Below are positions 1,373-48,778 of a stretch of DNA of 64,000 nucleotides, piece after piece (within the stretch, counting starts at the first letter, position 1; each line of letters opens with the position of its first letter). A program made the translations under genes and the position numbers. This stretch comes from Myxococcota bacterium (GTDB lineage Bacteria; Myxococcota_A; UBA9160; UBA6930), in assembly GCA_965223415.1 (NCBI GenBank), contig OZ245002.1, positions 5,408,001 through 5,472,000 on the forward strand, written 5' to 3'. Below the pieces are notes generated by a model. It had not been told where the DNA came from. It did not search any database and saw only the letters and a list, made by a program, of their open reading frames with translations.

Positions 1373-1472
1373 TGTCTGGGCGGACGGGACTCGAACCCGC
1401 GGAGCCGGGCGATAAGACCCCGGAATCGTGAGGGTTTTTCTCGGCGACCCCGTGCTCAAGGTGTGCTCAAGG
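1373..1472 (-). repeat. Variant tRNA-Asp att-like module
   Basis: 1378-1400 identical to 23 nt of tRNA-Asp; GTGCTCAAGG at 1452 and 1463. Confidence 0.8.
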
Positions 1473-1516
1473 CGAGCAACCAACAGGCATCGGCGCGTCC
1501 GAGCCTTGGAGCCTCC

Positions 1517-1806
1517 CTAAGCCGCCGCCTCAAGGCTCTCGCGAATGATCCGTGGGTGACGTGCGGCGATCCGGAGCAGCGCGATCGCAGGACCCTCCGG
1601 CTGCCTCCGGCCCTGCTCCCAGTTGCGAAGCGTGTGGACGCTGATTCCCATCGCCTTCGCGAAGTCCGTCTGTGTCAGCCCCACGAAGGTGCGGAGCGCA
1701 GCGATGTCCTGTCCAGACTCGAAGCGGCCCTGTATCAGCCGCCTCCGAAACGGGCGGGAATCGCCCGCTTCAGCTGCTCTTCGGTGAGTTCGGGGATATC
1801 TGTCAT
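1517..1806 (-). pseudogene. XRE-HTH antitoxin, frameshifted
   Basis: MTDIPELTEEQLK start in one frame; LTQTDFAKAMGISVHTLRNWEQGRRQPEG HTH in another. Confidence 0.75.
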
Positions 1807-2092
1807 CGGCTCTGATCCATGTACGAGCGGTAAAGCGACCCCTCGCATGCGTTGGCCCAACGGGCGCCAATGATTCGAATGATGTCTTGTCGCGCTCGGT
1901 ATAGACGATGACCACGATTCGCCGCTCAATGGGACCGATCGCGATGAAGCGATCCTCGGAGTCGGAGTGTTCGCTGTGGAAGATCTCCAAGTAGTCGACA
2001 TCGGATTCGAAGAGCCATCGAGCCTCCCCGAACGAGATGCCGTGCTTCTCCTGGCTGAGCAGGTCCTTCGCATCGTCCCACTCGAAACGCAC
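1803..2092 (-). pseudogene. BrnT-family toxin, frameshifted
   Basis: MRFEWDDAK..KHGISF..EDRFIAIG; C-terminal IRIIGAR lies in a different frame after ~1890. Confidence 0.8.
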
Positions 2093-2102
2093 AGGGAAGA
2101 AG

Positions 2103-2135
2103 GTAAGTCATTGACTGACTAGGTCAGTGACTTAC
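2103..2135. promoter_or_regulatory. Probable TA operator
   Basis: GTAAGTCATTGAC-N7-GTCAGTGACTTAC inverted repeat (1 mismatch) just upstream of the BrnT start. Confidence 0.6.
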
Positions 2136-2229
2136 GTCATTGAGCCATGGCCTCGGTGGACGTCTGAAAACCGGCCAAAGGTGGACGTCTCAAAGGCGGC
2201 CAAAGGGCCGCGCCCAGGACAGAGGGGTT

Positions 2230-2991
2230 CTACCGCGCCGGGGCCTCCTTCGGCAAGGCGGTGGTCTTCTTGGTGCGCCAGCTGCGGGGTCCGCACTTGA
2301 GCAGGTGGCCGTGGTGGAGGAGGCGGTCGAGCATGGCGGTGACGGCTGCCGTGTCGCCGAGGAGCCGGCCCCAGTCGTCGACGGGTCGGTTCGAGGTGAC
2401 GAGGGTGCTGGTGCGCTCGTAGCGGCGCATGATCAGCTCGAGGAGGTCCTCGGCGGCCGTGGTGGGGAGCTTGCGCATGCCGAGGTCGTCGAGGATGAGC
2501 AGCGGCACTCTCGCGATCTCGGCCAGGTACTCCTTGCGGGTGCCGTCGAGGGTCGCATCAGCGAGTTCCTCGAGGAGGACGTGGACCTCGCGGTAGGCGA
2601 CGCGATGGCCCTGGTGGATGACGGCGAGGCCGATCGCCTGGGCGAGATGGCTCTTGCCCGTGCCCGGCGGGCCGAGGAAGACAGCGTCCTCGGCTTGCTC
2701 GAGGAAGCGGCCCGTGGCGAGCTCGAAGACCAGGGCGCGATCGATCTTCGTATTGAAGCGGAAGTCGAAGCCGTTGAGGGTCCGGTTGGCGTCGCGGAAG
2801 CGGGCCTGCTTGATGCGCCGGGCCAGCAGTCGGTCCTGCCGGCGCTCGAGCTCGTCCTGGACGAGCGCCGAGAGCAGGTCGATGGCCGCCCACTCGCCCT
2901 TCTGGGCTTCGAGGAGCCGCATCTCCAGATGCTCGGCCATGCCCGAGAGCCGGAGCTTGCGCAGTGCGGGATCGAGTTCAGTCAGATTCAC
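2230..2991 (-). CDS. istB: IS21 helper ATPase
   Basis: GPPGTGKS, LLILDDLG, TSNR, LDRLLHH. Confidence 0.95.
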   Translation of the reverse strand: MNLTELDPALRKLRLSGMAEHLEMRLLEAQKGEWAAIDLLSALVQDELERRQDRLLARRIKQARFRDANRTLNGFDFRFNTKIDRALVFELATGRFLEQAEDAVFLGPPGTGKSHLAQAIGLAVIHQGHRVAYREVHVLLEELADATLDGTRKEYLAEIARVPLLILDDLGMRKLPTTAAEDLLELIMRRYERTSTLVTSNRPVDDWGRLLGDTAAVTAMLDRLLHHGHLLKCGPRSWRTKKTTALPKEAPAR

Positions 2992-4567
2992 GAGAGGTCT
3001 CCTCGGTGCGGCGATCGATGAGATCGCGGTAGTGGGTGAGCTGGCGGATGAGCGGGTCCACCTGCTTGAGCGAGAGCGGCAGCTCGGGCTGACGCTCCAG
3101 GTAGCGCTTGACGAACGCGTAGGTGGGCAGCTCGAGGGCCAGGGCGGTGGCGCAGGCATCGTCGACGCGAGGGATGCCGTGGCGCTTGCACAGGGAGAGC
3201 ACGCCCAGGATGCGACGCACCCCGGGCTCGCCGTCCAGGCGATGGATCGCCTCACACACCTCGCCCACGTGGACGCCGGCGCGCCGGGCCCGCGCGAGCA
3301 GCTGGAGGGTCGTGGCCGGCGTCCGCTTCGGGCGGTCCTCCTCCCGCATCCTGCGGCGCCCCCGCCTCTGGCGGACGTGCTCGCGCAGCAGCTCCCCCGT
3401 CTGCAGATCGAGCATCCGCACCCGCAGCCCGTCCCATTGGACGGCCACCCGCCGCCCCAGCCAGCCCGGCGGCGCGTGGTAGTAGGCCCCCTCCACCTCG
3501 ATGGCCCCGTCGAGGTGCACCGTGCGCTCGCCGTGCTGGTAGTAGCGGAAGGGCTCGATGGGAAGCCCGAGCAGGTGCGGCTTCTCCTCTTCGTACATCG
3601 CCGCCACCTGGCGCTTGGTCGTGCCGTGGATGCGGGTGTCGGCCCATCGGCGCTCCCAGCGGTCGAGGTAGGCCTGGGCCTGCTCGAGCGACTCGAAGCG
3701 CATCCCGCGGACCTTCTGCTGCGCGTGGCGCACCCCGGACTCGACCTTCCCCTTGCGATCGGGGTGGCGCACCCGGCACGGAAGCGCCGTCACGCCGTAG
3801 TGGGCGAGCACATCGCGGTAGAGGGGGTTGAGCGCGGGGTCGTAGACGTCGGGCTTGAGAACGCCCTCCTTGAGGTTGTCGAGGACGACGGTGCGCGGTG
3901 CACCGCCCAGCCGGCGGAAGGCCTTCTCGTGCAGCTCCGACCAGACCTGGCTGCTCGACTTCCACACGAGCAGCCGAACGCACTTGCGGCTGTAGCCCAG
4001 GGTGAAGACGAACAGCCTCGTGCGCCGGTACTTCCCCGACCCGGGATGCCGCACCATCGGCCCGTCGCCGTAGTCGACCTGGCCCTCTTCTCCCGGTGCC
4101 GTCTCGATCACCGGGTGCGCCTCGCGCGGCGCCGCGGCTCGCTGCTTCGCCACGAAGCGCTTCACACTCGCATAGCTGAAGGCGAAGCCGTGGTCATCGA
4201 CTAGGTCCTGCCAGATCGCCATCGCCGTCCGGCCCTGGCGCACGCCCGCCTCGATCCACTCGCGGTAGGGCTCGCAGGCGCTGGCCTGGGGGCTCCGGCC
4301 CGGCATCGGCGGCCAGGCCGGATCGGTGGACGCCTCTTTGGCCGCTTTTGCCGGGGCCTTCGAGTCGGTGGACGCCTCTATGGCCGGGTTTGGGGCCCCG
4401 TGCCCCCAGCGACCAGGAGATCGCACCGCGATCCCCGCGGCCCGGAGGTAACGGCTCGCCGTCTCCCGGCGCACGCCCGTCGCCTCCTCGATCCGCCGAA
4501 GCGACCAGCCGAGGCGGCCAAGTGCCAGAATCTGCTCGCGTTTCTCGTTGCCCAGAAGGTTCGCCAT
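2978..4567 (-). CDS. istA: IS21 DDE transposase
   Basis: PGEEGQVDYG, VVLDNLK, KGKVESGV. Confidence 0.95.
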   Translation of the reverse strand: MANLLGNEKREQILALGRLGWSLRRIEEATGVRRETASRYLRAAGIAVRSPGRWGHGAPNPAIEASTDSKAPAKAAKEASTDPAWPPMPGRSPQASACEPYREWIEAGVRQGRTAMAIWQDLVDDHGFAFSYASVKRFVAKQRAAAPREAHPVIETAPGEEGQVDYGDGPMVRHPGSGKYRRTRLFVFTLGYSRKCVRLLVWKSSSQVWSELHEKAFRRLGGAPRTVVLDNLKEGVLKPDVYDPALNPLYRDVLAHYGVTALPCRVRHPDRKGKVESGVRHAQQKVRGMRFESLEQAQAYLDRWERRWADTRIHGTTKRQVAAMYEEEKPHLLGLPIEPFRYYQHGERTVHLDGAIEVEGAYYHAPPGWLGRRVAVQWDGLRVRMLDLQTGELLREHVRQRRGRRRMREEDRPKRTPATTLQLLARARRAGVHVGEVCEAIHRLDGEPGVRRILGVLSLCKRHGIPRVDDACATALALELPTYAFVKRYLERQPELPLSLKQVDPLIRQLTHYRDLIDRRTEETSRESD

Positions 4568-4774
4568 GGCGGCGGGGGATCGCAGGTCCCTCGCCGTCGT
4601 CAACGTCCTGGGCGTCAGCCCCTATGGCCGCTTTTCAGACGTCCTTCTATGGCCGGTTTTGGGTGTCCACCGAGGGCCATGGCGCAAGGCGCGCGCCCTG
4701 GACCGGGCGGTGCGTATCCCACTCGTATCCCGACTCCCAGGCGGTCGGGAAACCCTAGAGAATCCGGAACCTTG

Positions 4775-4871
4775 TGGCGGGGCGGACGGGACTCGAACCT
4801 ACAACCTCCGGCTGTAACTCCGCGGAAACCCGGGGGTTCGTGAGGCGGAGGCTTGTATCCCGTTGTATCCC
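4775..4871 (-). repeat. tRNA-Asp att-like module (97 bp)
   Basis: 4775-4799 identical to tRNA-Asp 3' 25 nt; TTGTATCCC at 4853 and 4863; CGTATCCC x2 also on the left (4713-4731). Confidence 0.92.
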
Positions 4872-4930: not shown

Positions 4931-5131
4931 ATGGCGACCAACCTCGATCTCGACCCCAACCTCGTCGAGCGCGCCCTGGCCCTGAGCGGGGCCCCTACCA
5001 AGAAGGCGGCTGTGACGGCAGCCCTCCAGGAGTTCATCGCGCGGCGTGAGCAGCGCGGGCTCCTCGAGCTCTTTGGCAAGCTCGAGTGGGATCCTGGCTA
5101 CGACTACAAGCGTGAGCGCTCCCGGGATTGA
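4931..5131 (+). CDS. vapB: VapB-type antitoxin
   Basis: MATNLDLDPNLVERA..TKKAAVTAALQEF; overlaps the PIN gene. Confidence 0.85.
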   Translation: MATNLDLDPNLVERALALSGAPTKKAAVTAALQEFIARREQRGLLELFGKLEWDPGYDYKRERSRD

Positions 5132-5532
5132 GCCTGTTCGTCGACACGAGCGTCTGGTCGCTCGCACTGCGCCGCGACCGTCCACCCGACGTGCCAGAGG
5201 TCGGCGCGCTCGAGCGGGCGCTCGCGGAGGGCGAGTTGATCACTACCACCGGCCTCGTCTACCAGGAGCTCCTCCAGGGGTTCCATGGCCCGCGCGACCA
5301 GGAGGCGATCGTGGCGCACTTCGGCGCCCTGCCCTTCCTGACGCCCGATCGCCACGATCACTTCGAGGCCGCGCAGTTGCGCAACCGGGCCCGCCGTCGG
5401 GGAGTCCAGGTCGGCACGATCGACGCGATCCTCGCCCAGCTCTGCATCCGCTACGAGCTACGGCTGCTCACCACCGACGCGGACTTCGCGCGAATCGCCG
5501 AGCAAGAGCCGCTGGAGCGCTGGATGCCGTAG
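5128..5532 (+). CDS. vapC: VapC PIN-domain toxin
   Basis: FVDTSVW, ELLQG, TIDAILA, LLTTDADF. Confidence 0.9.
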   Translation: MSLFVDTSVWSLALRRDRPPDVPEVGALERALAEGELITTTGLVYQELLQGFHGPRDQEAIVAHFGALPFLTPDRHDHFEAAQLRNRARRRGVQVGTIDAILAQLCIRYELRLLTTDADFARIAEQEPLERWMP

Positions 5533-5612: not shown

Positions 5613-6233
5613 TCAGGCTTCGGCGCGGCTCCCGGACCAGGAGAGCACCGTCTCGAGGAGAGCGACGGCAAGCGCCCGCTCCTGCTCGACGCCGCCGAGG
5701 AGTTCCGACCCCATCTCCCCGAGGTTCACGCGGACCGCATGGAAGACGACGACGTGGAGCAGCGCTTGCCGCAGCGGGGCCTCTGCGGGCATGCGCGAAC
5801 CCCTCGCACTGCGCACCGCGGCCTCGATCCGCTCCACGAGGGGCAGCATCGTGTCGCGAACCGCGGCCATCCCGTGCCTTCCGGGGCCGAGGACCTCGGC
5901 GTTGAGCACGCCGAGGAGATCGCGGTGCTCCACCTCGAAGGCGGAGATCGCATCCAGGACGTCGGCCAGCAGCTTGCGGGGTGACTCGTCGGACGCGAGC
6001 ACTCGCACGAGCGGCTCTTCGATGCGGCGATAGGCACGACGCATCACCTCGTCGAAGAGGACTTCCTTCGATCCGAAGTGGTAGAGGAGCGACGGGGCTC
6101 GCATGCCGGCCGCTTCGGCCAGCTGCTGCAGGGAGGTCGGGTGGAAGCCGCCCTTGGCGAAGGCGTGCTCCGCTGCCGAGAGGATCCGCTCTCGCGTCGC
6201 GGCTCGATCTAGCGAGCCTCTGGGCCGTCCCAC
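5613..6233 (-). CDS. TetR/AcrR regulator
   Basis: TRERILSAA..SLQQLAEAAGMRAPSLLYHFGSKE; GTG start inferred. Confidence 0.88.
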   Translation of the reverse strand: MGRPRGSLDRAATRERILSAAEHAFAKGGFHPTSLQQLAEAAGMRAPSLLYHFGSKEVLFDEVMRRAYRRIEEPLVRVLASDESPRKLLADVLDAISAFEVEHRDLLGVLNAEVLGPGRHGMAAVRDTMLPLVERIEAAVRSARGSRMPAEAPLRQALLHVVVFHAVRVNLGEMGSELLGGVEQERALAVALLETVLSWSGSRAEA

Positions 6234-6257
6234 GAGACCTCCGGCGTGTTGCAGAAA

Positions 6258-6274
6258 ATCTAATGGTATTAGAT
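6258..6274. promoter_or_regulatory. Probable TetR operator
   Basis: ATCTAAT-GGT-ATTAGAT palindrome in the divergent intergenic region. Confidence 0.6.
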
Positions 6275-6314
6275 AGTCCTGCTGCTGCCCACCCGGCGCT
6301 CCAGGGAGGACTCC

Positions 6315-6866
6315 ATGACCGAGCAGCCCGAGAACACGACCCGCGAGGCCCAGGCCCCTGTCCAAGCCGAGGACCTCCGCGAGCTCTCCCCGGAAGAGCT
6401 CATGGACCTCTTCCACAAGGGCCGTGCCCCAACCTCCCTGGCCGCGATCGAGGGCGACCCACGAGGCGTCGGCATCGGGCTGCACTTCTGGTCGCGCGGC
6501 TGGATCGATCGCTGGCTCCGAAAGCGGACGACGACCGAGCGCTTCCTGTGGCACGGGAAGAGCTTCCGGATGAAGACCGAGACCGAGGGCTGGGGCTTCA
6601 ACCGCACCGGCCGCGGCCCGATCCTCACCGTCTTCCCCTTCAAGACCAGCCTCGGGACCTCCGTGATCGACGGCGAGCCCTGCGTGGTCATCGACTACGA
6701 CGTGCCGCGGAATCCGTGGTGGGAGCGGCTCACCTGGGACGAGCTGCGCGAGGTGTCACCGGGGGTGTTCCTGGGCGTGACGACGCTCCGCCTCTTCGGA
6801 CGTCACCGGGTCTCCCTCTGGTTCGCCGTGGACACGACGGCGCCCCAGGATTGGGCGGGTGCCTGA
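6315..6866 (+). CDS. Hypothetical protein
   Basis: GGAGG RBS, plausible composition, divergent from TetR. Confidence 0.7.
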   Translation: MTEQPENTTREAQAPVQAEDLRELSPEELMDLFHKGRAPTSLAAIEGDPRGVGIGLHFWSRGWIDRWLRKRTTTERFLWHGKSFRMKTETEGWGFNRTGRGPILTVFPFKTSLGTSVIDGEPCVVIDYDVPRNPWWERLTWDELREVSPGVFLGVTTLRLFGRHRVSLWFAVDTTAPQDWAGA

Positions 6867-6991
6867 TCGGCCCTTCTGCGAATCCGCTCGGCCCGTCTCC
6901 CGGCTGTCGGAATGATGTTAGGCGCCGACTCGTCGCGGAACGCGAGGCTCTGGCGTGCCAACGGCCACGCCCATCCGCGCGACTCCTTCGC

Positions 6992-7897
6992 GTGAGTGTG
7001 TTCACGGACAAGGTCGCGATCATTACCGGCGGCGCTTCCGGCATCGGCCGGGCACTCGGGGAGGCGCTGGCCCGGGCGGGGGCGCGGGTGGTGCTCGCCG
7101 ACCGCGACGCGGAGCGGCTCTTCCGAGCAGGCGAAGGCCTCGGCTCCGCCGGTGCGAGGGCCCGGACGGCCATCCTCGATGTCCGGGACTCCCGCGCGGT
7201 ACACGAGCTCGTCGAGAAGACGGCGCAGGAGCACGGCCGGCTGGACTACCTCTTCAACAACGCCGGGATCGGCGTCTTCGGCGAGGCCCGCGACGTCTCA
7301 CTCGAGGACTGGCGCAACGTCGTCGACGTCGATCTCTACGGCGTCGTGCACGGTGTCACCGCCGCGTACCCGCTCATGGTGGAGCAGGGCTCCGGCCACA
7401 TCGTCAACACGGCTTCGCTCGCCGGATTGATTCCCGGGGTCGGCGGGGCCTCCTATTCTGCAGCCAAGTACGGCGTGGTCGGCCTCTCACACGCCCTGCG
7501 CTTGGAGGCGGAGGCTCTGGGCGTCAAGGTGAGCGTGGCGTGCCCCGGCTTCGTCGAGACGGCCTTCCAGACCAGCAAGGTGGTGGGGCTGAACCGCGAG
7601 GCGTTCCTCGCCGGAGCACCGAAGCTCATGCCCGCGGACCGGTGTGCGCGGGACATCCTGCGCGGAGTCGAGCGCAACCAGGAGACCATCGTCGTCAGCA
7701 CCCTCGCCAAGGTCGCCTGGCGCTCGTACCGGTACGCGCCCGGCCTGGTGAGGTGGACCATGCGAAGAACCCTCAGAGAGATGCGCGAACTGCGCACCGA
7801 GCCATCCAGACGTCAGGGGTCCGAGATCAGGCGCTCGCCGCACGACCAAGGGCAGCCAAAGCGCCGAACCAAGCACCGCCAGAACGAGAATAGATGA
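6992..7897 (+). CDS. Short-chain dehydrogenase/reductase; C-terminus reads into the repeat spacer
   Basis: TGGASGIG, NNAG, YSAAK. Confidence 0.88.
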   Translation: MSVFTDKVAIITGGASGIGRALGEALARAGARVVLADRDAERLFRAGEGLGSAGARARTAILDVRDSRAVHELVEKTAQEHGRLDYLFNNAGIGVFGEARDVSLEDWRNVVDVDLYGVVHGVTAAYPLMVEQGSGHIVNTASLAGLIPGVGGASYSAAKYGVVGLSHALRLEAEALGVKVSVACPGFVETAFQTSKVVGLNREAFLAGAPKLMPADRCARDILRGVERNQETIVVSTLAKVAWRSYRYAPGLVRWTMRRTLREMRELRTEPSRRQGSEIRRSPHDQGQPKRRTKHRQNENR

Positions 7898-7914
7898 ACG
7901 ATTCCGGGTACTTA
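7803..7914. repeat. Truncated copy of the conserved Arg-Asp spacer
   Basis: Aligns with 48589-48701 (GAACCAAGCACCGCCAGAACG shared). Confidence 0.8.
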
Positions 7915-8011
7915 TGGCGGGGCGGACGGGACTCGAACCTACAACCTTCGGCTGTAACTCCTCGGAAACGAAGGGGTTCTTGAGGCTGAAGCCTGTATCC
8001 CGTTGTATCCC
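7915..8011 (-). repeat. tRNA-Asp att-like module (97 bp)
   Basis: 25-nt tRNA 3' identity plus TGTATCCC x2. Confidence 0.92.
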
Positions 8012-8061: not shown

Positions 8062-8388
8062 ATGTCGGTCGCAAGCATCGTCCGGGAGGCCCGCCGCCGC
8101 GCGGGCCTGACCCAGGCCTCATTGGCCCAGAAGGCGGGCGTTCCGAAGTCCACCGTAGGCCGGATCGAGTCCGGGGCTCGAACGCCTTCGGTCGAGCTCG
8201 TGGAGCGGCTCGTCCGAGCGGCCGGGCTCGAGGTCACCATCGCCTTGTCCGAGCCCGATCCCGGAACCGACTCCTTGTTCGAGCGCACGCTACGCCGCAC
8301 ACCTGCAGAGCGACTCGCCGATGCGACTCGAGCGGCGCGCTTCGTCCTGCGCGGCAGGCGCGAGATCGCGGCCGCGGCCGATGGCTAG
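8062..8388 (+). CDS. XRE-family HTH protein (putative antitoxin)
   Basis: GLTQASLAQKAGVPKSTVGRIESG. Confidence 0.85.
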   Translation: MSVASIVREARRRAGLTQASLAQKAGVPKSTVGRIESGARTPSVELVERLVRAAGLEVTIALSEPDPGTDSLFERTLRRTPAERLADATRAARFVLRGRREIAAAADG

Positions 8389-8896
8389 TCGCGACTTCGA
8401 CCCGGAGAAGATGCTCTCCGTGCTGGCGGAGGCAGGCGTGGAGTTCGTCCTCATCGGCGGTATGGCGGCAATCCTGCACGGCGACGTCGGGGTCACCGTC
8501 GACCTGGATGTCGTTCCTGACCGCGAAGCGGCGAATCTCGAGCGTCTCGCGCGAGCTCTACAAGAGCTTGGAGCACGCATCCGCACCGAGGGTGAGCCGG
8601 AGGGATTGGCGTTCGATTGCTCGGCCCAGTTCTTCGCCAACCTGTCTCCTGACTCGATCGTGAACATGACCACGCAGGCAGGCGACCTGGACGTCACGTT
8701 CTGCCCGAGCGGAACGCAGGGCTTCCGGGACCTCCGGCGAGACGCCGTTGAAATCGAAGCGGCCGAGCGCCTACACATCCTGGTGGCATCGCTCGCAGAC
8801 ATCATTCGCTCGAAGGAAGCTGCCGGTCGAGAGAAAGACCGCCTCGCCCTGCCCCGCCTTCGTCGACTACTGGATCGCCTCGGCGAGAGCGAGTAG
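8381..8896 (+). CDS. Nucleotidyltransferase-fold protein (TA-like partner)
   Basis: LIGGMAA..HG..TVDLDV; SKEAAGREKD. Confidence 0.8.
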   Translation: MASRDFDPEKMLSVLAEAGVEFVLIGGMAAILHGDVGVTVDLDVVPDREAANLERLARALQELGARIRTEGEPEGLAFDCSAQFFANLSPDSIVNMTTQAGDLDVTFCPSGTQGFRDLRRDAVEIEAAERLHILVASLADIIRSKEAAGREKDRLALPRLRRLLDRLGESE

Positions 8897-8914: not shown

Positions 8915-9010
8915 CCCCCGACCCCCAGGTTCGAAGCCTGAAGGGACCCGTAGGAAATCCAAATAGTTACGGGATTCCGAGCGGGAATACGCGGGAATGA
9001 GCGGGAATAC
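8915..9010 (-). repeat. tRNA-Arg anticodon-arm fragment plus 3x10-bp repeat
   Basis: CCCCCGACCCCCAGGTTCGAAGCCTG (8915-8940); GCGGGAATAC/GCGGGAATGA/GCGGGAATAC (8981-9010). Confidence 0.85.
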
Positions 9011-11336: not shown

Positions 11337-11346
11337 GCGGAATCTT

Positions 11347-22676: not shown

Positions 22677-22681
22677 TCAAC

Positions 22682-37980: not shown

Positions 37981-39738
<1,758 letters not shown>

Positions 39739-39879: not shown

Positions 39880-41646
39880 ATGGCTTGGCTCGACGAACTC
39901 ACTGCGATCGGACGTCTAGTAGGGAGCGCTCGACGTGCGCTGCCCAAATCGAACTGGACCATGACGCGGCTGCTCGAGGAGCGCGCACACCGGGCGCCCG
40001 GCGATCTTGCCCTCGCGTACCTCGATCGTCGGTATACCTGGGGCGAGATCGACCAGCACGCGAATCGCTGGGCCCACGTGTTCCTGGACGAGGGCATCGA
40101 GCCCGGCGACATCGTGGCGCTGATCATGGACAACCGACCGGAGTACCTCTTCGCGGTCCATGGCCTCGCGAAGGTCGGTGCGGCGGCGGCGCTGATCAAC
40201 ACGAATCTCACGGGTCAGTCCCTCGTCCACGCGATCACCGTGGGGAACTCGCGCAAGGTCGTCGCCGGCGACGAGCACGCGGCCGCCGTCGAAGAGGTGA
40301 TCGCGGAGCTCGAGACCCTCGACGACGAGCACCCGGTCCTGCTCCACGTGGAGGACGCGACGCAGCCGCGACCCGGTGGGGGCGTGCCGCTCAACGAGGC
40401 GCTGCAGTCGGCCCAGGCGTCGAAGCCGCAGGTCGCAGTCGAGGCCGACTCCGAGATCCTCTTCTGCTTCATCTACACGTCCGGGACGACGGGGCTGCCG
40501 AAGGCTGCGGTCGTCTCGCACCGGCGCGCGATGATCGGGGGGCTCGGCGCTGCGCACCTCATGATGCGGCTCGAGCCGGGTGACGTGAGCTACGTGGCCC
40601 TGCCGCTCTATCACTCGAGCGCGATGTTCATCGGCTGGAGCGCCGTGCTGAACTCCGGCGCTGCGATGGCGTTGCGGCGCAAGTTCTCGGTCACGCATTT
40701 CTGGGACGACGTGCGTCGCTTCGGCGCCACGCACTCCGTCTACATCGGCGAGCTGTGTCGCTACCTCCTGAACGGGGAGCCCGGTCCGGGCGATCGCGAC
40801 CACGACCTGCGTTGCGTAATGGGCAACGGACTGCGACCGGACATCTGGAACGAGTTCCAGGAGCGCTTCGGGATCCCGGAGATCCGCGAGTTCTATGGCG
40901 CCACCGAAGGCACGGCGGGGCTCATGAATCGCACGGGCAAGCCGGGCATGGTGGGCAAGATCGGCTTCGGCATGAAGCTGGTCACCTGCAACCAGGAGAC
41001 CGGCGAGCCGATTCGCGGCGCCGACGGTTTCTGTACCCCGGTCGACCCGGGGCAGATCGGCCTGCTGCTGGGACCGATCTCGAAGGCGACCTCGTTCGAC
41101 GGCTACGTCGACCGGGAGGCCTCGCAGAAGAAGATCCTGACGGACGTGTTCAAGAGCGGCGATCGCTTCTTCAACACGGGGGACCTGTTGCAACTCCACG
41201 AGGGCAAGTGGCTCTCGTTCGCGGATCGGGTGGGGGACACCTTCCGCTGGAAGGGCGAGAACGTCTCGACCAACGAGGTCGCGGAGGTCTGCAACGGAGC
41301 GCCGGGTGTGCTCGAGACCAACGTCTACGGCGTTCAGGTTCCGGGCGCAGACGGCCGGGCCGGCATGGCGGCGATCGACACGGACGAGGGCTTCGACCTC
41401 GAGGCGTTCGCCGGGTTCGTGAAGTCGGCGCTTCCCGGCTACCAGCGTCCGCTCTTCGTGCGCCTGCTGGGCGGCGAGATGCAGACCACCGGCACCTTCA
41501 AGCACCAGAAGGTGCGATACCGCAACGAGGCGTTCGATCCCGGCCAGTGCGAGGACCCGCTCTACTACTTCGATGGCGAGTCGTATCGGCCCATCGACGC
41601 CGCGGTCTTCGACGCCATCGGCAAAGGCGAGATCCGGGTGGGCTAG
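39880..41646 (+). CDS. Long-chain acyl-CoA synthetase (FATP/FadD6-like)
   Basis: IYTSGTTGLPK, YIGELCRYL, DRVGDTFRWKGENVST. Confidence 0.92.
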   Translation: MAWLDELTAIGRLVGSARRALPKSNWTMTRLLEERAHRAPGDLALAYLDRRYTWGEIDQHANRWAHVFLDEGIEPGDIVALIMDNRPEYLFAVHGLAKVGAAAALINTNLTGQSLVHAITVGNSRKVVAGDEHAAAVEEVIAELETLDDEHPVLLHVEDATQPRPGGGVPLNEALQSAQASKPQVAVEADSEILFCFIYTSGTTGLPKAAVVSHRRAMIGGLGAAHLMMRLEPGDVSYVALPLYHSSAMFIGWSAVLNSGAAMALRRKFSVTHFWDDVRRFGATHSVYIGELCRYLLNGEPGPGDRDHDLRCVMGNGLRPDIWNEFQERFGIPEIREFYGATEGTAGLMNRTGKPGMVGKIGFGMKLVTCNQETGEPIRGADGFCTPVDPGQIGLLLGPISKATSFDGYVDREASQKKILTDVFKSGDRFFNTGDLLQLHEGKWLSFADRVGDTFRWKGENVSTNEVAEVCNGAPGVLETNVYGVQVPGADGRAGMAAIDTDEGFDLEAFAGFVKSALPGYQRPLFVRLLGGEMQTTGTFKHQKVRYRNEAFDPGQCEDPLYYFDGESYRPIDAAVFDAIGKGEIRVG

Positions 41647-41804: not shown

Positions 41805-41882
41805 TGGCACGCCGGGAGGGATTCGAACCCCCGACCCCCAGGTTCGAAGCCTGGTGCTCGATGTCGAACCACCGGACAACGC
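41805..41882 (-). repeat. tRNA-Arg(TCG)-like element with intact 3' half and aberrant 5' half
   Basis: CCAGG-CTTCGAA-CCTGG arm, T arm, CCA; near copy of 11347-11424. Confidence 0.8.
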
Positions 41883-42013
41883 AGTTCGAAGAGCCGCGCG
41901 CATCCAGCGTTCAGCGGCCCGGAACCAGGCGCTCGCCGCGACAACCAAGCACGACCAAAACGCGAAATCAGACACCGCCAGAACGCGAATTCCTCAGCGA
42001 ATCCGGCGACTTG
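41883..42013. repeat. Conserved Arg-Asp spacer
   Basis: Same length as and homologous to 11425-11555. Confidence 0.85.
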
Positions 42014-42110
42014 TGGCGGGGCGGACGGGACTCGAACCTACAACCTCCGGCCGTAACTCCGCGGAAACGCAGGGGTCCGGATCGGTGAAGCTTGTATCCC
42101 GTTGTATCCC
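42014..42110 (-). repeat. tRNA-Asp att-like module (97 bp)
   Basis: 25-nt tRNA 3' identity plus TTGTATCCC x2. Confidence 0.92.
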
Positions 42111-42303
42111 AACCTCTCCGGGACCCCCCGCTGCCCCGAGCGCAGTGGGGTTTGGCGGGACCCAGTCAACCAGGTGCGACCAGTTCGAACCGGACTTCGC
42201 GCGAAGAGGACGCGGGAATCGAACCCGGGCTCAAGGGACGCAAGCGCCGGAAAGGAGTGGCGTCGATCTCTCGTATCGTCACTCACCACCCGTGAGGCGT
42301 GCA

Positions 42304-43383
42304 TCATTCGCCCGCCGCGGCGGACTGAAGCCGCGCCCGTCGACGGATCTCCGAAGGCGCGCATTGCGCCCAGCGCTTGAACGCCTTGCGGAAATTCGAG
42401 GCGTCCTCGAACCCGACCCGTCGCCCGATCTCGTCCACGGGAATGCGCGTGTTCTCCAGATACTCGACCGCCACCGACAAGCGTGTTTCATCGACGAGCT
42501 GCTGGAAGCGAAGCCCGTCGTCGCGAAGACGCCGGTAGAACGTCCGGAGGGATAGACCGAGGTTCTTGGCGATCTCAGGTGCGGTCGAAGCATACCCCTG
42601 GCGCGCGAGGCAGAGCCTTCGAACGTCCCGAGCAAGTCTCGTTTCCCCGACGCCGCTCGACACGATGCGTTCGCAGAAGTCCTGACACACGCGTGCGGTG
42701 GCATCGCTCGCCTCGGGACAGGGCCGTTCCAGAACGGCCGCATCGAAGTGCCACTCCATCACATCGCTGGCGAAATGGATCGGACATCGGAGCGCGTCGC
42801 GGTACGCCGCTGCGTGGGCAGGCGCTTCGTACGGGAAGTACATCGCGCTCGAGGGGAAAGGCGCCCCGACCACGTAGCCGAGTAGCGTCGACATCGAGCT
42901 TCGCCAGAACTCGGCCACGAATGGGAGCGCACTGCCCAGCGAGTGCGCATCGTGGGAGCGCAAGACGCCCACGTCGCCCTGCAGCTCGAAGGTGATGCGC
43001 AGGACGGGACCGGCGAGCTCCAGGTGCTCGAGACCGAACTCGAACGCTTCGCCGACGGTACGACTCGTCAACAGCGCATAGCCGAAGAGGCCGAAGTCGC
43101 TGATGCGCTGCCGCGCGCCGGCCCGCAGGGCCGTGTCAGGCCGTCGTGCGAGGCGCTCGGCGCTTCGCAGCAGCGCAACTCGCCGACCATGATCGATCGG
43201 GTGCTCGGAACTCAACGCGTCGCCCAATGTGACGCCCGACGCGGAAGTCCATGCTCGGTGATCGATGCCCTGCTCGGCGAGCTCGCGGCCGAGCGCGTCG
43301 AGTCCGAAGCCGAGGGAGGCTCCGGACGAGAGGTCAACGGGGACTTCCGGACGTTCTCGTTGAATGGGCAGCTGGGAGGGCAC
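42304..43383 (-). CDS. AraC-family regulator
   Basis: LGLSLRTFYRRL, VGFEDASNFRKAFKRW; start uncertain. Confidence 0.9.
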   Translation of the reverse strand: MPSQLPIQRERPEVPVDLSSGASLGFGLDALGRELAEQGIDHRAWTSASGVTLGDALSSEHPIDHGRRVALLRSAERLARRPDTALRAGARQRISDFGLFGYALLTSRTVGEAFEFGLEHLELAGPVLRITFELQGDVGVLRSHDAHSLGSALPFVAEFWRSSMSTLLGYVVGAPFPSSAMYFPYEAPAHAAAYRDALRCPIHFASDVMEWHFDAAVLERPCPEASDATARVCQDFCERIVSSGVGETRLARDVRRLCLARQGYASTAPEIAKNLGLSLRTFYRRLRDDGLRFQQLVDETRLSVAVEYLENTRIPVDEIGRRVGFEDASNFRKAFKRWAQCAPSEIRRRARLQSAAAGE

Positions 43384-43521
43384 CGGCCGACGTTCCTCGC
43401 TATTCGCTCGAGCCTTCGAGCCTAGGATGGCACGATTTCACTCGATGATTGGCAGGATATCACCTCACAGTCGGTGGCGCTGTCGCAGATACTCCTGGTG
43501 CCCGTCGAGCAGGAGTCCCCG

Positions 43522-44940
43522 ATGACGACCCAGCCCCCCATCGAAGCCCTGTCCCAACGACTCCGATCCCAACGCGCCGCCTTCGCCGCGGAGCCGTACC
43601 CGACGCTGGCTCGGCGGCGCGAGTGGATCGATCGCATCCTCGACATGACCGCCCGCTACCAGCACGAGATCGTCGAGGCGGCACACGTGGATTTCGGGGG
43701 CCGCGCGCCGGCCGAGACGACCATGGTCGAGGTCTTCGGAACGACCGCCAACGCGCGCAACACAAAACGCCGCCTGAAGAAGTGGATGCGCGCTCGCCGG
43801 ATGCCCACCGCGCCGCCCTTCCGGCCCGGCTACAACCGTCTCATGGCGCAGCCCGTAGGCGTCGTCGGTGTGATCGCGCCGTGGAACCTCGCCTACAACC
43901 TCTCGATGGGGCCGGCGATCGCAGCGTTTGCCGCGGGGAACCGTGTCATGTTGAAGCCAAGCGAGATCACGCCGGCCAGTGCCGAGCTGATCCGTCGCAT
44001 GGTCGGCGAGAACTTCGACCCCGACGAGTTCGACGTCTTCCCGGGTGGTCCGGAGCTGGCTGCTGCCTTCTCGGAGCTTCCCTTCGACCATCTCCTCTAC
44101 ACGGGATCGACGTCGATCGGTCGGCGCGTGGCCGAGGCCGCCGCGCGCAACCTCACGCCGGTCACGCTCGAGCTCGGCGGCAAGAGCCCCGTCATCATCG
44201 ACGACTCCGCGGACTTCAAGCGAGCGGCACGGCGCATCGCGTTCGCCAAGCTCCTCAATGGCGGCCAGATCTGCATCGCCCCCGACTACGCGCTCGTGCC
44301 GCGTTCACGGCGTGACGAGTTCGCCCAGGCGGTCATCGCGGAGGCGTGTGACCTCTACCCCGACGCCACTACGAACGACGACTACTGCTCGATCGTGTCC
44401 GACCGGCATCATGAGCGCCTGCTCGGGCTGTTGTCGGAGGCGAGAGCCGCTGGCACCGAGGTGTTGAACGTGGCGCGCATCGAAGAGAGCCACGATCGCC
44501 GGATCCCCATGCAGATCCTGCTCGACCCGGACGAGAAGCTCGGCGTCATGAAGGAGGAGATCTTCGGGCCGCTCCTGCCCGTCGTCTCCTACGAAACGCC
44601 CGATGAGGCCATCCGCTACGTGAACGAACGGCCGCGCCCCCTCGCGCTCTACTGGTTCGGCCAGGATCAGAAGCGTCGAGAAGAGGTGCTCCACCAGACG
44701 ATTAGCGGTGGCGTCACGATCAACGACGCGATCTGGCACTTCGCCCAGGAGGACCAACCCTTCGGCGGTGTCGGCGAGAGCGGCATGGGCGCCTATCACG
44801 GCGAGGCGGGCTTCCGCACCTTCTCGAAGGAGAAACCCGTCTACCACTCGGCGGCGTGGCCGTACTCGATGGCGATGTTCCAACCGCCCTATTCCGACCG
44901 CACCCTGAAGCTACTGGAATTCCTGCGGCGGATCGTTTGA
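43522..44940 (+). CDS. Aldehyde dehydrogenase (coniferyl-aldehyde DH-like)
   Basis: LELGGKSP, GQICIAPDY, EEIFGP, PFGGVGESGMG. Confidence 0.92.
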   Translation: MTTQPPIEALSQRLRSQRAAFAAEPYPTLARRREWIDRILDMTARYQHEIVEAAHVDFGGRAPAETTMVEVFGTTANARNTKRRLKKWMRARRMPTAPPFRPGYNRLMAQPVGVVGVIAPWNLAYNLSMGPAIAAFAAGNRVMLKPSEITPASAELIRRMVGENFDPDEFDVFPGGPELAAAFSELPFDHLLYTGSTSIGRRVAEAAARNLTPVTLELGGKSPVIIDDSADFKRAARRIAFAKLLNGGQICIAPDYALVPRSRRDEFAQAVIAEACDLYPDATTNDDYCSIVSDRHHERLLGLLSEARAAGTEVLNVARIEESHDRRIPMQILLDPDEKLGVMKEEIFGPLLPVVSYETPDEAIRYVNERPRPLALYWFGQDQKRREEVLHQTISGGVTINDAIWHFAQEDQPFGGVGESGMGAYHGEAGFRTFSKEKPVYHSAAWPYSMAMFQPPYSDRTLKLLEFLRRIV

Positions 44941-44983
44941 CCGCGAATCCACCGACCCAATCCGACTCACAAGGAGAGAACCC

Positions 44984-45763
44984 ATGTCAGAAGAGACCTC
45001 CGTGAGCTACGAGCAGGACGGCCCGCTGGGCATCCTGACGATGCACCACGCCCCGCACAATCTGCTGGGTCCTCCCTTGATGAAGGGCGTGCGCGACGCG
45101 CTGGCCACCGCAGAGAAGGAAGGTGCGAGAGCGGTCCTCCTCAAGAGCGGCTTGCGGCATTTCTCGGCGGGCGCCGACATCGCGCTCTTCGAAGGCGCCA
45201 TGGACGGAGGCGGCGGACTCGAGCTCTCGCCTGTCAACTTCCTGAAGGTGCTCGAGGCGTTCCCGCTGCCGATGGTGGCAGCCGTGCACGGCGTCTGTGT
45301 CGGCGGCGGTCTGGAGCCCGCCCTCACGTGCGACTTCATCATCGCCGCGCGCTCTTCGAAGATCGGATCGGTCGAGGCCACGATCGGGCTCAATCCGCTC
45401 ATGGGCGCGATCCAACGGCAGGTCCAGCGGGCCGGGGCGCTCCGCGCCAAGGAGATGTCGATGCTCGGCCGGCGCTATGACGCCGAGACCCTCGAACGCT
45501 GGAATCTCGTGAACCGCGTGGTCGACGACGAGAACCTCGAAGCGGCCGCCCACGCCGTGGCGATGGAACTCGCCAACGGTCCGACGGTCGCACACCGCAT
45601 CACGAAGGAGCTCGCGCGCATTGCGGAAGACGAAGGCGTTGCAGCGGCGGACGCGGTGATGGAGGAGAAGCAGAAGGCGCTCTGGTCGTCCGAGGATCTG
45701 AAGATCGGCCTCGAATCGCTCATGAAGAACGGTCCGGGCCTCGCCCGCTTCGAGGGGAGGTAA
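44984..45763 (+). CDS. Enoyl-CoA hydratase/isomerase
   Basis: FSAGAD, VHG.CVGGGLE..CD. Confidence 0.88.
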   Translation: MSEETSVSYEQDGPLGILTMHHAPHNLLGPPLMKGVRDALATAEKEGARAVLLKSGLRHFSAGADIALFEGAMDGGGGLELSPVNFLKVLEAFPLPMVAAVHGVCVGGGLEPALTCDFIIAARSSKIGSVEATIGLNPLMGAIQRQVQRAGALRAKEMSMLGRRYDAETLERWNLVNRVVDDENLEAAAHAVAMELANGPTVAHRITKELARIAEDEGVAAADAVMEEKQKALWSSEDLKIGLESLMKNGPGLARFEGR

Positions 45764-45766
45764 ACC

Positions 45767-47089
45767 ATGTCGGGACCTCTCGAAGGACTCAAGGTCGTCG
45801 ATTTTTCGCGCGTATTGGCCGGTCCGCTCTGCGCGCGCACGCTGCAGGACCTCGGCGCGGAGGTGCTCAAGATCGAGCCGCCGCGTGCAGACGTCTCCCG
45901 CTTCTCGGCTCCGATCAATCCCAACGGCATGTCGGGCTACTACGCCCAACAGAACGCCGGCAAGCGGAACATCTCGATCGATCTCAATCGGCCGGAGGCG
46001 CGGGAGATCGCGCTCAAGCTATGTGACGAAGCGGACGTACTCGTCGAGAATTTCCGGCCGGGGGCACTCGGTGCATTCGGGCTCGACTACGCGACGCTCG
46101 CCGAGCGTAATCCGCGACTCATCTACGTCTCGATCTCGGGCTACGGGCAAGGCGGTCCCTTCAAGGGGCGCATGGCCTACGCGCCGACCGTTCAGGCCGA
46201 GGCGGGCTTCACCCATCACTCCCTTCGCCACTTCGGGGAGAATCTCCAGGCGCCCCAGACCGACGCCCTCTCCCACGCCGACGTCTACGCCGGCTTGCAG
46301 GGGGTGATCGCGGTGCTCGCCGCCGTCCGCCAGAGGGAGACGACGGGGACCGGGCAGCACATCGACGTGGCGATGGCGGCAACGGTGATCGCGATCAACG
46401 AGCGCGCGCACGTCGATCTCAACGGGCTCGAGCTCGAGGACGAGCCCGCGATCCTCGGCGCGACCGATGGCTCGTTCTTCACGGGACCGGGTGGCGAGCC
46501 GTTCATCTCCGCGATCAGCATCGTCGGAACGATCACCTTCCGCTTCTTCATGGCGGCGATGCGCCGACCCGACCTCGCCCTCGACCCGCGCTTCGCAACA
46601 CCCGGCGCGCGCCGGGCGAACCTCGAATCCCTGAAAGACGTGATCCAGTCGTGGATCTACTCCTTCCCCGACATGGCCTCCCTCGACGCTCAGCTCGACG
46701 AAGCGAAGATCGCGATCGGAGAGATCCGACCGCTCCAAGAAGTGGCCGAGTCCGAGTGGGCCGACTACTGGACTGCGACCCACGAGGTCTCGGACCGCAA
46801 CGGCGGCTCGTTTCGGCTACCGGGCCGACCGTGGAGGTTCTCGGGCGCGGAACTCTCTCCGCCCGGCGAGCCAGCGCTCCAGGGCGAGCACAACGCTCAG
46901 GTCTGCTCCGAGCTCGGACTCGACGATGCCGCAGTCAAGGAACTCGAAGAAGCGGGCGTACTGGTCGGAAACTTCGCAGCGCGAATGATCGAGAGCGTCG
47001 AGCAGAGTGTCGCGGCCGATCTCGCGCGGATCAACGCGGCACCCGAAGTGGCCGATTCGTCGGAAGGCGCGGGAGATCGACCTGAATGA
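45767..47089 (+). CDS. Family III CoA-transferase (CaiB/BaiF)
   Basis: LAGP..DLGAEVLKIE, NAGK, ENFRPG. Confidence 0.9.
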   Translation: MSGPLEGLKVVDFSRVLAGPLCARTLQDLGAEVLKIEPPRADVSRFSAPINPNGMSGYYAQQNAGKRNISIDLNRPEAREIALKLCDEADVLVENFRPGALGAFGLDYATLAERNPRLIYVSISGYGQGGPFKGRMAYAPTVQAEAGFTHHSLRHFGENLQAPQTDALSHADVYAGLQGVIAVLAAVRQRETTGTGQHIDVAMAATVIAINERAHVDLNGLELEDEPAILGATDGSFFTGPGGEPFISAISIVGTITFRFFMAAMRRPDLALDPRFATPGARRANLESLKDVIQSWIYSFPDMASLDAQLDEAKIAIGEIRPLQEVAESEWADYWTATHEVSDRNGGSFRLPGRPWRFSGAELSPPGEPALQGEHNAQVCSELGLDDAAVKELEEAGVLVGNFAARMIESVEQSVAADLARINAAPEVADSSEGAGDRPE

Positions 47090-48351
47090 CGACGGTCGAC
47101 GAGACCCACGACCCGCAGCTCCGGAGCTGGGTCACGAGCGCGAACGATCCCGACTCGGACTTTCCGATCCAGAATCTCCCGTTCGGCATCTATCGATCGC
47201 GCGACGCCGGATCGCAATGGCGGGGCGGTGTGGCAATCGGCGACCAGGTCTTCGACCTGGCCGCCGTCGACGCGGAGACCGGCCCGACCTTGAACCCACT
47301 GGCTGCTGCCGGTCGATCGACCTGGCGAGACTTGCGCCAGAGGCTCTCGCACGCGCTTTCCGATCGGGGCCACTCCGCGAAGCTCGAGCGATACCTGACT
47401 TCCCTTTCGGACGTCGAGCTCGGTCTCCCCGTCGCCGTCGGCGACTACACCGACTTCTACAGCTCGTATTTCCATGCGTATCACGCAGGGCAGCTCTTTC
47501 GTCCCGATGATCCGCTCACGCCGAACTTCAAGTGGATTCCCATCGGCTACCACGGCCGGTCCTCGTCGATCGTGCCGAGCGGAGCTCCCGTCTACCGGCC
47601 GTCGGGGCAACAGTCGCCCGAAGGCGAGGGCCCGCCGATGTTCGGCCCCTCGAAGGCACTGGACTACGAGGTCGAGCTCGGACTCGTCGTCGGCCCGGGG
47701 AACGAGCGCGGCAATGCGATCCCCATCGATCGTGCGGAGGACCATCTCTTCGGTGTCGTTCTTCTGAATGACTGGTCCGCGCGCGACGTTCAGGCCTGGG
47801 AGTATCAACCGCTCGGCCCCTTCCTCTCGAAAAGCTTCGCGACGACACTATCGCCTTGGGTCGTCACCCTCGAGGCGCTCGCGCCGTTTCGCGCCCCCGC
47901 CTTCGCGCGTTCGCAGGGGGATCCGGAGCCGCTGCCCTACCTGACCGATTCGCGCAACGAAAAGCGGGGCCACTTCGACATCCAGGTCGAGGCGTGGATC
48001 AGGACGGCGGACGCGACCCGGCCGTATCGCCTGTCTCATAGCTCGTATGCGACGAGCTATTGGACAGCCGCGCAGCTCATCACGCACCACACCTCCAACG
48101 GCTGCCCTCTCGAGCCAGGTGATCTCCTGGGAACCGGAACCGTGTCAGGACCGAACCCGGAAGAGGCAGGGACGTTGCTCGAGCTGTCGAAAGCCGGCGC
48201 ATCGCCAGTAGTGCTGCCCGACGGTGCCAAGCGCGGATTCCTCGAGGATGGTGATGAGCTCGTGCTGCGCGCAGGCTGCAATGCGGAAGGCTACCGAGGA
48301 ATCGGGTTCGGTGAGGCAACCGGAACGGTGGCTGCCACGGTCGATTCTTGA
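47086..48351 (+). CDS. fahA: Fumarylacetoacetase
   Basis: FPIQNLPFG, DYTDFY, YHGRSSS, NDWSARDVQAWEYQPLGPF. Confidence 0.93.
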   Translation: MTTVDETHDPQLRSWVTSANDPDSDFPIQNLPFGIYRSRDAGSQWRGGVAIGDQVFDLAAVDAETGPTLNPLAAAGRSTWRDLRQRLSHALSDRGHSAKLERYLTSLSDVELGLPVAVGDYTDFYSSYFHAYHAGQLFRPDDPLTPNFKWIPIGYHGRSSSIVPSGAPVYRPSGQQSPEGEGPPMFGPSKALDYEVELGLVVGPGNERGNAIPIDRAEDHLFGVVLLNDWSARDVQAWEYQPLGPFLSKSFATTLSPWVVTLEALAPFRAPAFARSQGDPEPLPYLTDSRNEKRGHFDIQVEAWIRTADATRPYRLSHSSYATSYWTAAQLITHHTSNGCPLEPGDLLGTGTVSGPNPEEAGTLLELSKAGASPVVLPDGAKRGFLEDGDELVLRAGCNAEGYRGIGFGEATGTVAATVDS

Positions 48352-48532
48352 ATCGAACTGCAGCGGTCGAGACCCCTGGCACCGATTTCTCACCGCAGAT
48401 CAACGCATTGCTCCGCCAGCGAGCTCTCGCGAGTGTGCGGAGACACCGCGAGAGCTGCAGCCTATCCGACGGTTCGGTTGCGCCGGAGCCTCCGGGCAGG
48501 CGATCCCAGGTCCGATCGACCAGGCGGACCCA

Positions 48533-48701
48533 GACCCCCAGATGCTCGATGTCGAACGGCCGGACAACACAGTTCGGACAGACGCGCGCATCCAGGCGTC
48601 AGGACTCCGAGATCGGGCGCTCGCCGCGACAACCAAGCGCAGCCAAAGCCCCGAACCAAGCACCGCCAGAACGCGAATTCCTCAGCGAATCCAGCGGCTT
48701 G
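48533..48701. repeat. Arg-Asp spacer with a deleted Arg site
   Basis: GACCCCCAG joined directly to ATGCTCGATGTCGAAC; rest homologous to 11396-11555. Confidence 0.85.
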
Positions 48702-48778
48702 TGGCGGGGCGGACGGGACTCGAACCCGCAACTTCCGGCGTGACAGGCCGGTGCTCTAACCAATTGAACTACCGCCCC
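48702..48778 (-). tRNA. tRNA-Asp(GTC)
   Basis: 77-nt cloverleaf: GGGGCGG/CCGCCCC acceptor, CCGGC-CTGTCAC-GCCGG, TTCGAGT, CCA. Confidence 0.97.

Follow-up and report, generated by a model that had tools for sequence, protein, structure and literature searches.

The stretch of 64,000 nucleotides analyzed here (the window), taken from a Myxococcota bacterium (assembly GCA_965223415.1, contig OZ245002.1, positions 5,408,001 to 5,472,000) and part of one 5.83-Mb contig, harbors between positions 1373 and 48778 a tandem array of units bounded by copies of the 3' end of a tRNA-Asp gene. Judging from the sequence, it is likely that the array represents a helper-dependent, two-tier series of genomic islets of the cis-mobilizable element (CIME) kind. 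As outlined in PMC7563491 and PMC5704250, a CIME is an element without integration genes that keeps its att sites and moves with an element integrated beside it. Positions are those of the window unless marked as genome positions; G labels (G000 for the source genome, G001, G035 and so on) denote the genomes compared and L labels the compared loci.

The 25-mer forming the 3' core of tRNA-Asp is exactly repeated at 4775, 7915, 11556, 26721, 42014 and 48702, and a seventh copy with 2 mismatches lies at 1373; all seven are on the same strand, and 100 shuffles gave no match to the 25-mer. The repeat positions and the single orientation described in the original prediction were therefore recovered, as were its unit sizes, the core-to-core lengths being 3402, 3140, 3641, 15165, 15293 and 6688 bp. 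The anchor is the tRNA-Asp(GTC) gene at 48702-48778 on the minus strand, and the array extends downstream of it, towards lower coordinates. The 97-bp module surrounding the core, whose genome-wide search had been suggested, is real: five full copies are present in the window (81-90 of 97 positions identical in pairwise comparisons), and further Asp cores exist both beyond the window, where an eighth core at genome 5,394,719 closes a seventh unit of 14,654 bp and an Arg site occurs at genome 5,391,942, and in a second cluster 0.5 Mb away. The absence of tyrosine and serine integrases from the array, also predicted, was supported by the profile searches. Indeed, PF00589 has no match within the array (10 elsewhere in the genome), PF00239 and PF07508 have none anywhere in the genome, and the profile of the cognate integrase family described below, run against 1239 six-frame segments of the array, revealed no remnant in any of the seven units. 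An Rfam scan of the window returned tRNA only. Insertion sequences (IS) account for 15,119 of the 47,406 bp of the window part of the array, about one third. An IS481-type deletion seems to have joined two units into the 15.2-kb one at 11556-26721.

When each junction is read in the sense of the tRNA, the right arm of one unit is followed by the core and then by the left arm of the next unit, which is the order expected for elements stacking at one tRNA. The right arms contain GGGATACA twice at five window junctions and TGAGCAC twice at 1373. Among the left arms, GGGATAC occurs twice at 26721 and 4775, and the type referred to as A, made of TTGGyTG repeats, follows the tRNA and the cores at 42014, 11556 and 7915. 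In this genome doubled GGGATAC (10 occurrences) and doubled TGAGCAC (3) are confined to the two clusters. The comparison of 38 right arms revealed a conservation of 98% and 99% for the two repeats, of 79% for the linker and of 44% for the DNA outside. Core and arms are kept at every junction, as attL and attR are in CIMEs. None of the six junctions has the paired boxes of attC (RYYYAAC / GTTRRRY) in a search made with the boxes only and without an attC covariance model. On this anatomy, the modules are att sites of tyrosine integrases and not attC sites. Lambda-type integrases possess arm-type binding sites, and by likeness to them the direct repeats are putative arm-type binding sites.

The integrases that would recognize these arms are found in related genomes. 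In several relatives tyrosine integrases lie directly behind tRNA-Asp, and 27 of 32 loci of this integrase family exhibit a perfect 8-10-nt repeat with 11-nt spacing about 40-65 nt past the tRNA end. The repeat motif is lineage-specific, being GGGATACA twice in G001 and CATGAGCAC twice in G035, G015 and G173, with at least five others at tRNA-Asp, and the motifs beside intact tRNA-Asp integrases are those of the integrase-less arms. Moreover, helper integrases adjoin the arrays of G035 and G049. Other genomes of the order also possess the module, with an identity of up to 95% in a different family. Core matches number 33 in G035, 11 in this genome and 0-5 in each of the other 191 genomes; the doubled GGGATACA pattern occurs in 7 of 193 genomes, and the strict combination of core and A arm in 3 of 401 genomes sampled across the phylum. 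The same parts are recognizable at 19 metagenome loci, and the records bearing the module are labelled mostly as uncultured deltaproteobacterium or Myxococcota, with a few small contigs labelled otherwise.

Unit statistics were obtained from 53 complete core-to-core units across genomes, after exclusion of a duplicate locus and of two spurious cores belonging to tRNA-Val; tblastn integrase-like matches in 8 of the 53 units were discarded as read-through translation of the att site. A full integrase is encoded by two units and a C-terminal stub of 16-43 residues by three, the remaining 48 having neither. Both units with a full integrase are the first behind the tRNA and have matching arms at both ends, and one of the stubs is 91% identical to the G001 integrase. 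Seven of nine complete first units lack an integrase, and about as many other tRNA-Asp genes are followed by one, with the unit end out of view. The three stubs support a derivation by deletion from autonomous elements for units with GGGATAC, GGCCAC and similar left ends; no parent element was found for the A arm, which is the left start of 20 of the 34 typed integrase-less units, and most units are chimeric.

Genes of toxin-antitoxin (TA) families stand at the right arm of 9 of the 12 fragment junctions in this genome (one more is putative and two have none) and of 17 of the 31 junctions with open reading frames called in relatives. The shared layout that had been proposed (Asp module, TA pair, Arg site) is in part borne out: a TA pair is present at five of the six window junctions but not at 42014, and a clear Arg core follows it at three, with a remnant at one. 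Shared right ends fall into ten families, which account for 34 of 85 junctions, and none of the 42 pairs sharing a right end shares DNA more than 230 nt past the core, so that the comparison of unit order with related genomes reveals the same TA ends with different neighbors. For instance, the VapBC end at 4775 exists in five copies in four genomes with three left-arm types, the copies of the three other genomes being 83-87% identical, and shared ends recur across families at 76-96% identity with new neighbors. Cargo recurs as well: the fatty-acid hydroxylase (25696-26559) is 92% identical over 497 bp, with the same left arm, in a relative's array (L050), and the AAA-DUF4143 gene (9111-10265) is 80% identical in another (L108). 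These data agree with the idea of non-autonomous, standardized units bounded by tRNA-derived sites and shuffled between genomes, whose cognate tyrosine integrases reside in relatives. A pair formed by a winged helix-turn-helix (wHTH) protein and a 183-aa protein occupies the TA position at L004:3915-4792 and at window 22682-23080; it matches no TA family in Pfam or NCBIfam and is a candidate new TA pair.

The features of the window, listed from the tRNA towards lower coordinates, are the following.

48702..48778, minus strand: tRNA-Asp(GTC), the anchor (attB/attL)
48538..48701, minus strand: left arm of type A, made of TTGGyTG repeats, with a decayed tRNA-Arg pad at its end
42304..48351: cargo of unit 1 (AraC regulator, aldehyde dehydrogenase, enoyl-CoA hydratase, CoA-transferase III, fumarylacetoacetase)
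42111..42207, minus strand: gene-less micro-linker in place of a TA pair, with 87-92% identical copies beside right arms of relatives
42014..42110, minus strand: right (P) arm, GGGATACA twice, and tRNA-Asp 3' core
41809..42013, minus strand: A arm and a tRNA-Arg(TCG) pad whose CCA end is complete, forming the left end of a filled pad (the 70-nt 'tRNA-Arg' of ARAGORN is this fragment)
29180..41646: 12.5-kb Arg-tier cargo (P450, amidohydrolases, acyl-CoA dehydrogenases, luciferase-like monooxygenase, AMP-binding enzyme, TetR)
29027..29174, minus strand: F right arm (GTGCCGTC repeats, common to the attR of the tRNA-Arg(TCG) island) and 5' half of an Arg core
27565..29026, plus strand: IS110 in the Arg core, guide-like matches at about 27635-27666
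26883..27510, plus strand: TA pair, RelE/ParE-family toxin (TIGR02683) and HI1420 antidote (TIGR02684)
26601..26817, minus strand: complete attP-like junction (right arm with GGGATACA twice, Asp core, 'B' left arm with GGGATACA twice)
14976..26559: cargo and IS pile (fatty-acid hydroxylase, IS481 pieces, IS5, glutathione S-transferase, TetR), with IS21 copies at 23081-25383 and 17890-20551 and a truncated wHTH module at 22682-23080
14700..14858, minus strand: F right arm and 3'-degenerate Arg core
11718..14652, plus strand: second RelE/HI1420 TA pair, split by IS21 (11979-14280)
11556..11652, minus strand: right arm with GGGATACA twice and Asp core
11351..11555, minus strand: A arm and Arg pad, the latter with a complete CCA end
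9111..11340: Arg-tier cargo (AAA_14-DUF4143 ATPase, molybdopterin-binding remnant, 3' part of IS481)
8915..9027, minus strand: 'E' right arm (ATTCCCG three times) and 3'-degenerate Arg core
8062..8896, plus strand: putative TA pair (Xre helix-turn-helix (HTH) protein and DUF6036 nucleotidyltransferase), also present without cargo in a relative and in the second cluster
7803..8011, minus strand: right arm with GGGATACA twice, Asp core (7915), truncated A arm
5613..7897: cargo (TetR, hypothetical protein, short-chain dehydrogenase), with an Arg T-arm remnant at 5545-5557
4931..5532, plus strand: VapBC TA pair
4700..4871, minus strand: attP-like junction (right arm with GGGATACA twice, Asp core (4775), 'C' left arm with GGGATAC twice)
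1517..4675, minus strand: IS21 (2151-4675) and BrnT toxin with HTH antitoxin (1517-2092)
1268..1473, minus strand: right arm with TGAGCAC twice, variant Asp core (1373), B-like left arm; the 14.7-kb unit continues outside the window

The Arg site had been seen in the original prediction but was not recognized for what it seems to be, a further tier of recombination nested in the first. At the end of the A arm lies a piece of tRNA-Arg(TCG), here called the pad. Forty-two Arg cores were compared, some from kin and hence non-independent genomes, a few of them doubtful, and with IS insertions uncorrected. The tRNA 5' flank is kept in 16 of the 19 Arg cores located within 260 nt after an Asp core versus 4 of the 23 others; the 3' end is degenerate in all 14 Arg cores that precede the next Asp core by no more than 1250 nt, and each of the nine full CCA ends belongs to one of the remaining 28. 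The Fisher values of these contrasts (3e-5 and 0.019) are overstated because the genomes are kin. Such a pattern would result from an element with a full tRNA end inserting into a degenerate-ended pad. In addition, empty and filled states are both seen: cargo-free units of 962-1198 bp (about 1 kb) occur in this genome and in G035, and three TA modules occur in two settings, immediately adjoining the pad and behind an arm (E, F or others). The core motif of the F arm is present four times in the clusters and once at the attR of an integrase-bearing island at tRNA-Arg(TCG), whose integrase (genome 1,217,204) has an open frame and matches PF00589 above cut-off; the left arm of this island differs from those of the array. 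Since a real tRNA-Arg(TCG) island shares the F arm and has an open-frame integrase, the helper of the Arg tier may be resident in this genome.

Other observations concern the Arg sites. Two ARAGORN calls of 'tRNA-Arg' were rejected as tRNA genes, being fragments without the 5' strand. Separate tandem arrays of tRNA-Arg(TCG) cores, with 7-8 cores each over 50-65 kb, are found at G022:C14 and G009:C107 (L086-L092), one of them with an integrase adjoining the tRNA. A 686-bp match of 99.7% between 10709-11393 and the end of the tRNA-Arg island could have arisen by exchange at the Arg core or simply because IS481 recently inserted at similar sites; at three places (window 10709-11340, genome 1,256,858 and 4,908,060) an IS481-type end follows a tRNA-Arg 3' end by about 10-12 bp, a possible target preference. 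The joints 8939-11347 and 8940-11360 were discarded as excision junctions, being out of register and fitting a paralogous site in the second cluster, and one run (66% read) had a low depth at 9415-10536 that was not usable as a sign of excision. No circle or excision junction appeared in the short-read contigs, whose breaks at the modules would have hidden one.

The pad also seems to be the target of an IS110 element. It is present in five near-identical copies (four in the clusters), each inserted at the same position of an Arg core with CT at both junctions, and its transposase is of the DEDD type (NF033542, above cut-off). The left non-coding end contains an 8-nt match to the left target within a predicted internal loop and, in the same loop, a 7-nt match to the reverse complement of core plus right target; both matches together were obtained in 2 of 20000 shuffles. 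This end has the predicted layout of a bridge RNA, as outlined for IS110 elements in PMC11208160. The guides imply a target with a one-base change in the anticodon stem, a variant absent from the resident tRNA and from all eight IS-free cores. A parallel is offered by the IS1111-attC elements, which, according to PMC11187229, target the site of integron cassettes. Recent IS expansion is apparent genome-wide, one IS21 being present in about 17 near-identical copies and one IS5 in about 12.

The second cluster (genome 4.907-4.931 Mb) comprises five Asp cores without a tRNA-Asp, is bounded by IS21 and has no PF00589 match. It starts with a fragment of tRNA-Arg(CCT), whose orientation is the reverse of that of the real gene, located 147 kb from it, and with an integrase N-terminus (PF13356, Arm-DNA-bind_3, E 2.5e-15) cut by IS21; the cluster may have originated by translocation or by carriage in an Arg island.

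On the basis of these data, we propose the following scenario. In the first tier, one tyrosine-recombinase family would target the T-loop/3' end of tRNA-Asp by means of a lineage-specific pair of arm repeats. The integrase-less units, keeping a conserved right arm and core, would be moved when a phage or island with matching arms visits the tRNA, either singly (if their arms match) or as passengers excised with a helper that supplies the left arm, two routes that we regard as about equally probable, and the helper would later depart. In the second tier, the A arm, the commonest left end, would carry its tRNA-Arg(TCG) piece as an attB for Arg-targeting islets. An empty unit would consist of about 1 kb (Asp core, A arm, Arg pad, TA pair and right arm), cargo would insert between the pad and the TA pair, and the TA pairs at the right arm probably protect the array from deletion. 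Phages or conjugative elements are plausible vehicles between cells, given a 38-kb viral record with a terminase, in which an attP-like tRNA-Asp core lies beside an integrase of the family apparently split over two frames, and one integrase unit of G173 with a coupling-protein gene nearby.

Several findings weigh against this scenario. Matching arms at both ends were found in 6 of the 34 typed integrase-less units, the A motif is on the right side of none of 85 junctions, and the A arm has no match among the sampled integrases. This genome has no cognate Asp integrase: its two family members, at tRNA-Met and tmRNA, are 33-42% identical to the Asp helpers and have a different motif where seen, and the first tier may be frozen here. 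The GGGATACA helper of G001 has its left arm only in view, its right end being off the contig, and the arm motif of the viral record differs from those of the array. As for the second tier, several degenerate-ended pads precede long cargo, and two window units possess decayed Arg sites only. The few matched arms and the A motif never being on the right fit units that would need only their right arm, with a helper supplying the left one. Hence, of the mobilization in trans put forward in the original prediction, the existence of cognate integrases is sustained by the relatives, but movement of single units is not, in view of the arms unmatched in 28 of 34 units and of the lack of a resident helper; the unmatched arms would fit carriage with a visiting helper at least as well. 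Among viral contigs, none had the GGGATACA arm and core together, and a scan of their proteins revealed no relative of the G001 integrase. Read backwards, the arm motif of the viral record resembles the A-arm repeats over 5-6 nt (L189:4850-5200), a weak lead to an A-type integrase.

Different explanations might account for the same organization. According to the first one, successive autonomous islands at tRNA-Asp and tRNA-Arg decayed in place and the units are immobile. Decay to CIMEs is, as presented in PMC7563491, the published norm, and the abundance of IS in the array, the stubs in three units of relatives, the integrase N-terminus of the second cluster and the absence of a helper from this genome are all in agreement with it. 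Nevertheless, we consider decay in place unlikely: none of the seven units here retains an integrase remnant, the space between arm and pad in A-type units is too short for an integrase, the arm repeats are conserved against a drifting background, the same ends occur in different families beside new neighbors, and the unmatched arms of 28 of 34 units cannot derive from the decay of a single element.

It also appears improbable that the integrases only founded the array and that the shuffling is due to RecA-type homologous recombination between modules of 100-300 bp. These modules are indeed 80-95% identical over up to 300 bp, and a crossover between two right arms yields the same product as a site-specific exchange. 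However, the pad/arm junctions switch inside the Arg core of about 25 bp, a tRNA-proximal insertion shares only the 25-bp Asp core, and a selective conservation of arm repeats would not be expected.

The possibility of a true integron-type array served by the IntI of this genome seems very remote to us. Integron arrays are rich in TA genes, and cassette-like sizes, TA content and an integron integrase at genome 2.06 Mb (L190:6339-7370; TIGR02249, 449.7 bits, cut-off 265) recall such a system, as do one conserved site per cassette and a recombinase provided from outside the cassette. Still, this gene is unlinked, megabases away from the array; the junctions lack attC boxes and have a double-stranded, arm-type att anatomy matching other integrases, and the cassettes reach 15 kb with their own regulators. 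Against TIGR02249, one helper scores 18.8 bits and the other has no match. The array, which had been described as an integron analogue, therefore works alike but differs from integrons, and from clusters of attC sites lacking integron integrases (CALIN), in its sites and in helpers that are not IntI.

As for the assembly, contigs from four runs (two samples of one study, possibly including the source sample) match unit interiors with no differences and cross the 1373 core and the 8915 Arg site, but they break at the exact cores, none of which is spanned by a short-read contig, so that unit order stands without independent verification. Despite these breaks at the modules, we give hardly any credence to an assembly artefact, since the module copies differ by 7-16 of 97 bases, the interiors agree in two samples, and the same design exists in other genomes and at the metagenome loci.

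CIMEs and tandem-accretion islands, not named in the original prediction, are the closest known class. In the accounts of Streptococcus ICESt1/ICESt3 and of tRNA-Lys islands given in PMC7563491 and PMC5704250, CIMEs and microCIMEs are integrase-less, keep attL and attR, are stacked at the 3' end of a gene with chimeric att junctions, measure 1.2-13 kb or are gene-less, and excision across unmatched arms has a precedent. The units of our array, too, contain no integration or transfer genes. Nevertheless, the composites described there comprise 2-3 elements, with CIMEs farthest from the target, whereas seven units are present here and 33 cores in one relative, with standard TA-capped ends and a nested second att tier, and no integrative and conjugative element is involved as far as seen. 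The ssrA islands of Dehalococcoides, as reported in PMC3146451, are likewise numerous and in tandem behind one RNA gene, and 15 of them lack an integration module and were proposed to be cis-mobilizable; they differ in using a serine recombinase and a 20-bp repeat only, in that 16 islands have their own module, and in that the account in that paper describes neither a second tier nor a TA cap. The tycheposons of Prochlorococcus (bioRxiv 10.1101/2020.12.28.424599) share tyrosine integrases at tRNAs, the inward displacement of old elements by new ones and the accumulation of partial tRNAs; however, as presented there, they carry their own integrase and often replication genes, and their integrase-less parts are called degenerate rather than standard units. 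An own integrase plus replication module, typical of tycheposons and of elements like phage-inducible chromosomal islands, was not found in the units. Finally, the dif modules of Acinetobacter plasmids, as outlined in PMC13141974, are recombinase-less, often contain TA genes and are shuffled by a recombinase encoded elsewhere, but they rely on XerC/D and on plasmid pdif sites in alternating orientation, in contrast to the chromosomal tRNA-derived direct repeats described here.

Fragments of tRNA left by integration are common, as stated in PMC9897764, and helper-dependent tandem islets are themselves of a known kind; what is new here is the combination of a nested pad and TA caps. Indeed, a literature search that covered main texts and a small part of the subscription journals yielded no account of TA-capped units in which a second tRNA att site is nested, nor, beyond the tandem precedents above, of a matching integrase-less, TA-capped or nested tRNA array.

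A remaining question concerns what maintains such an organization. Tentatively, and as something possible rather than probable, the array might be a maintained platform served by two integrases, in which TA 'carrier' units of about 1 kb, needing one functional arm, would ride with matching tRNA-Asp helpers, bringing with them a spare tRNA-Arg attB that would trap Arg-targeting cargo islets at a distance from the essential tRNA. The swapping of cargo, left ends and TA ends would take place at the two kinds of site, and the IS110 bridge RNA would be programmed to the spare one. With the helper family, its lineage-specific arm motifs and minimal substrates of about 1 kb now identified, the question of whether units move singly in trans or as passengers becomes approachable, and the pairs of integrase and arm, together with the site-programmed IS110, are candidate tools. 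A portable spare attB, if true, would account for the accumulation of cargo islands at places other than their nominal tRNA, and such islands would escape the island finders that start from an integrase.

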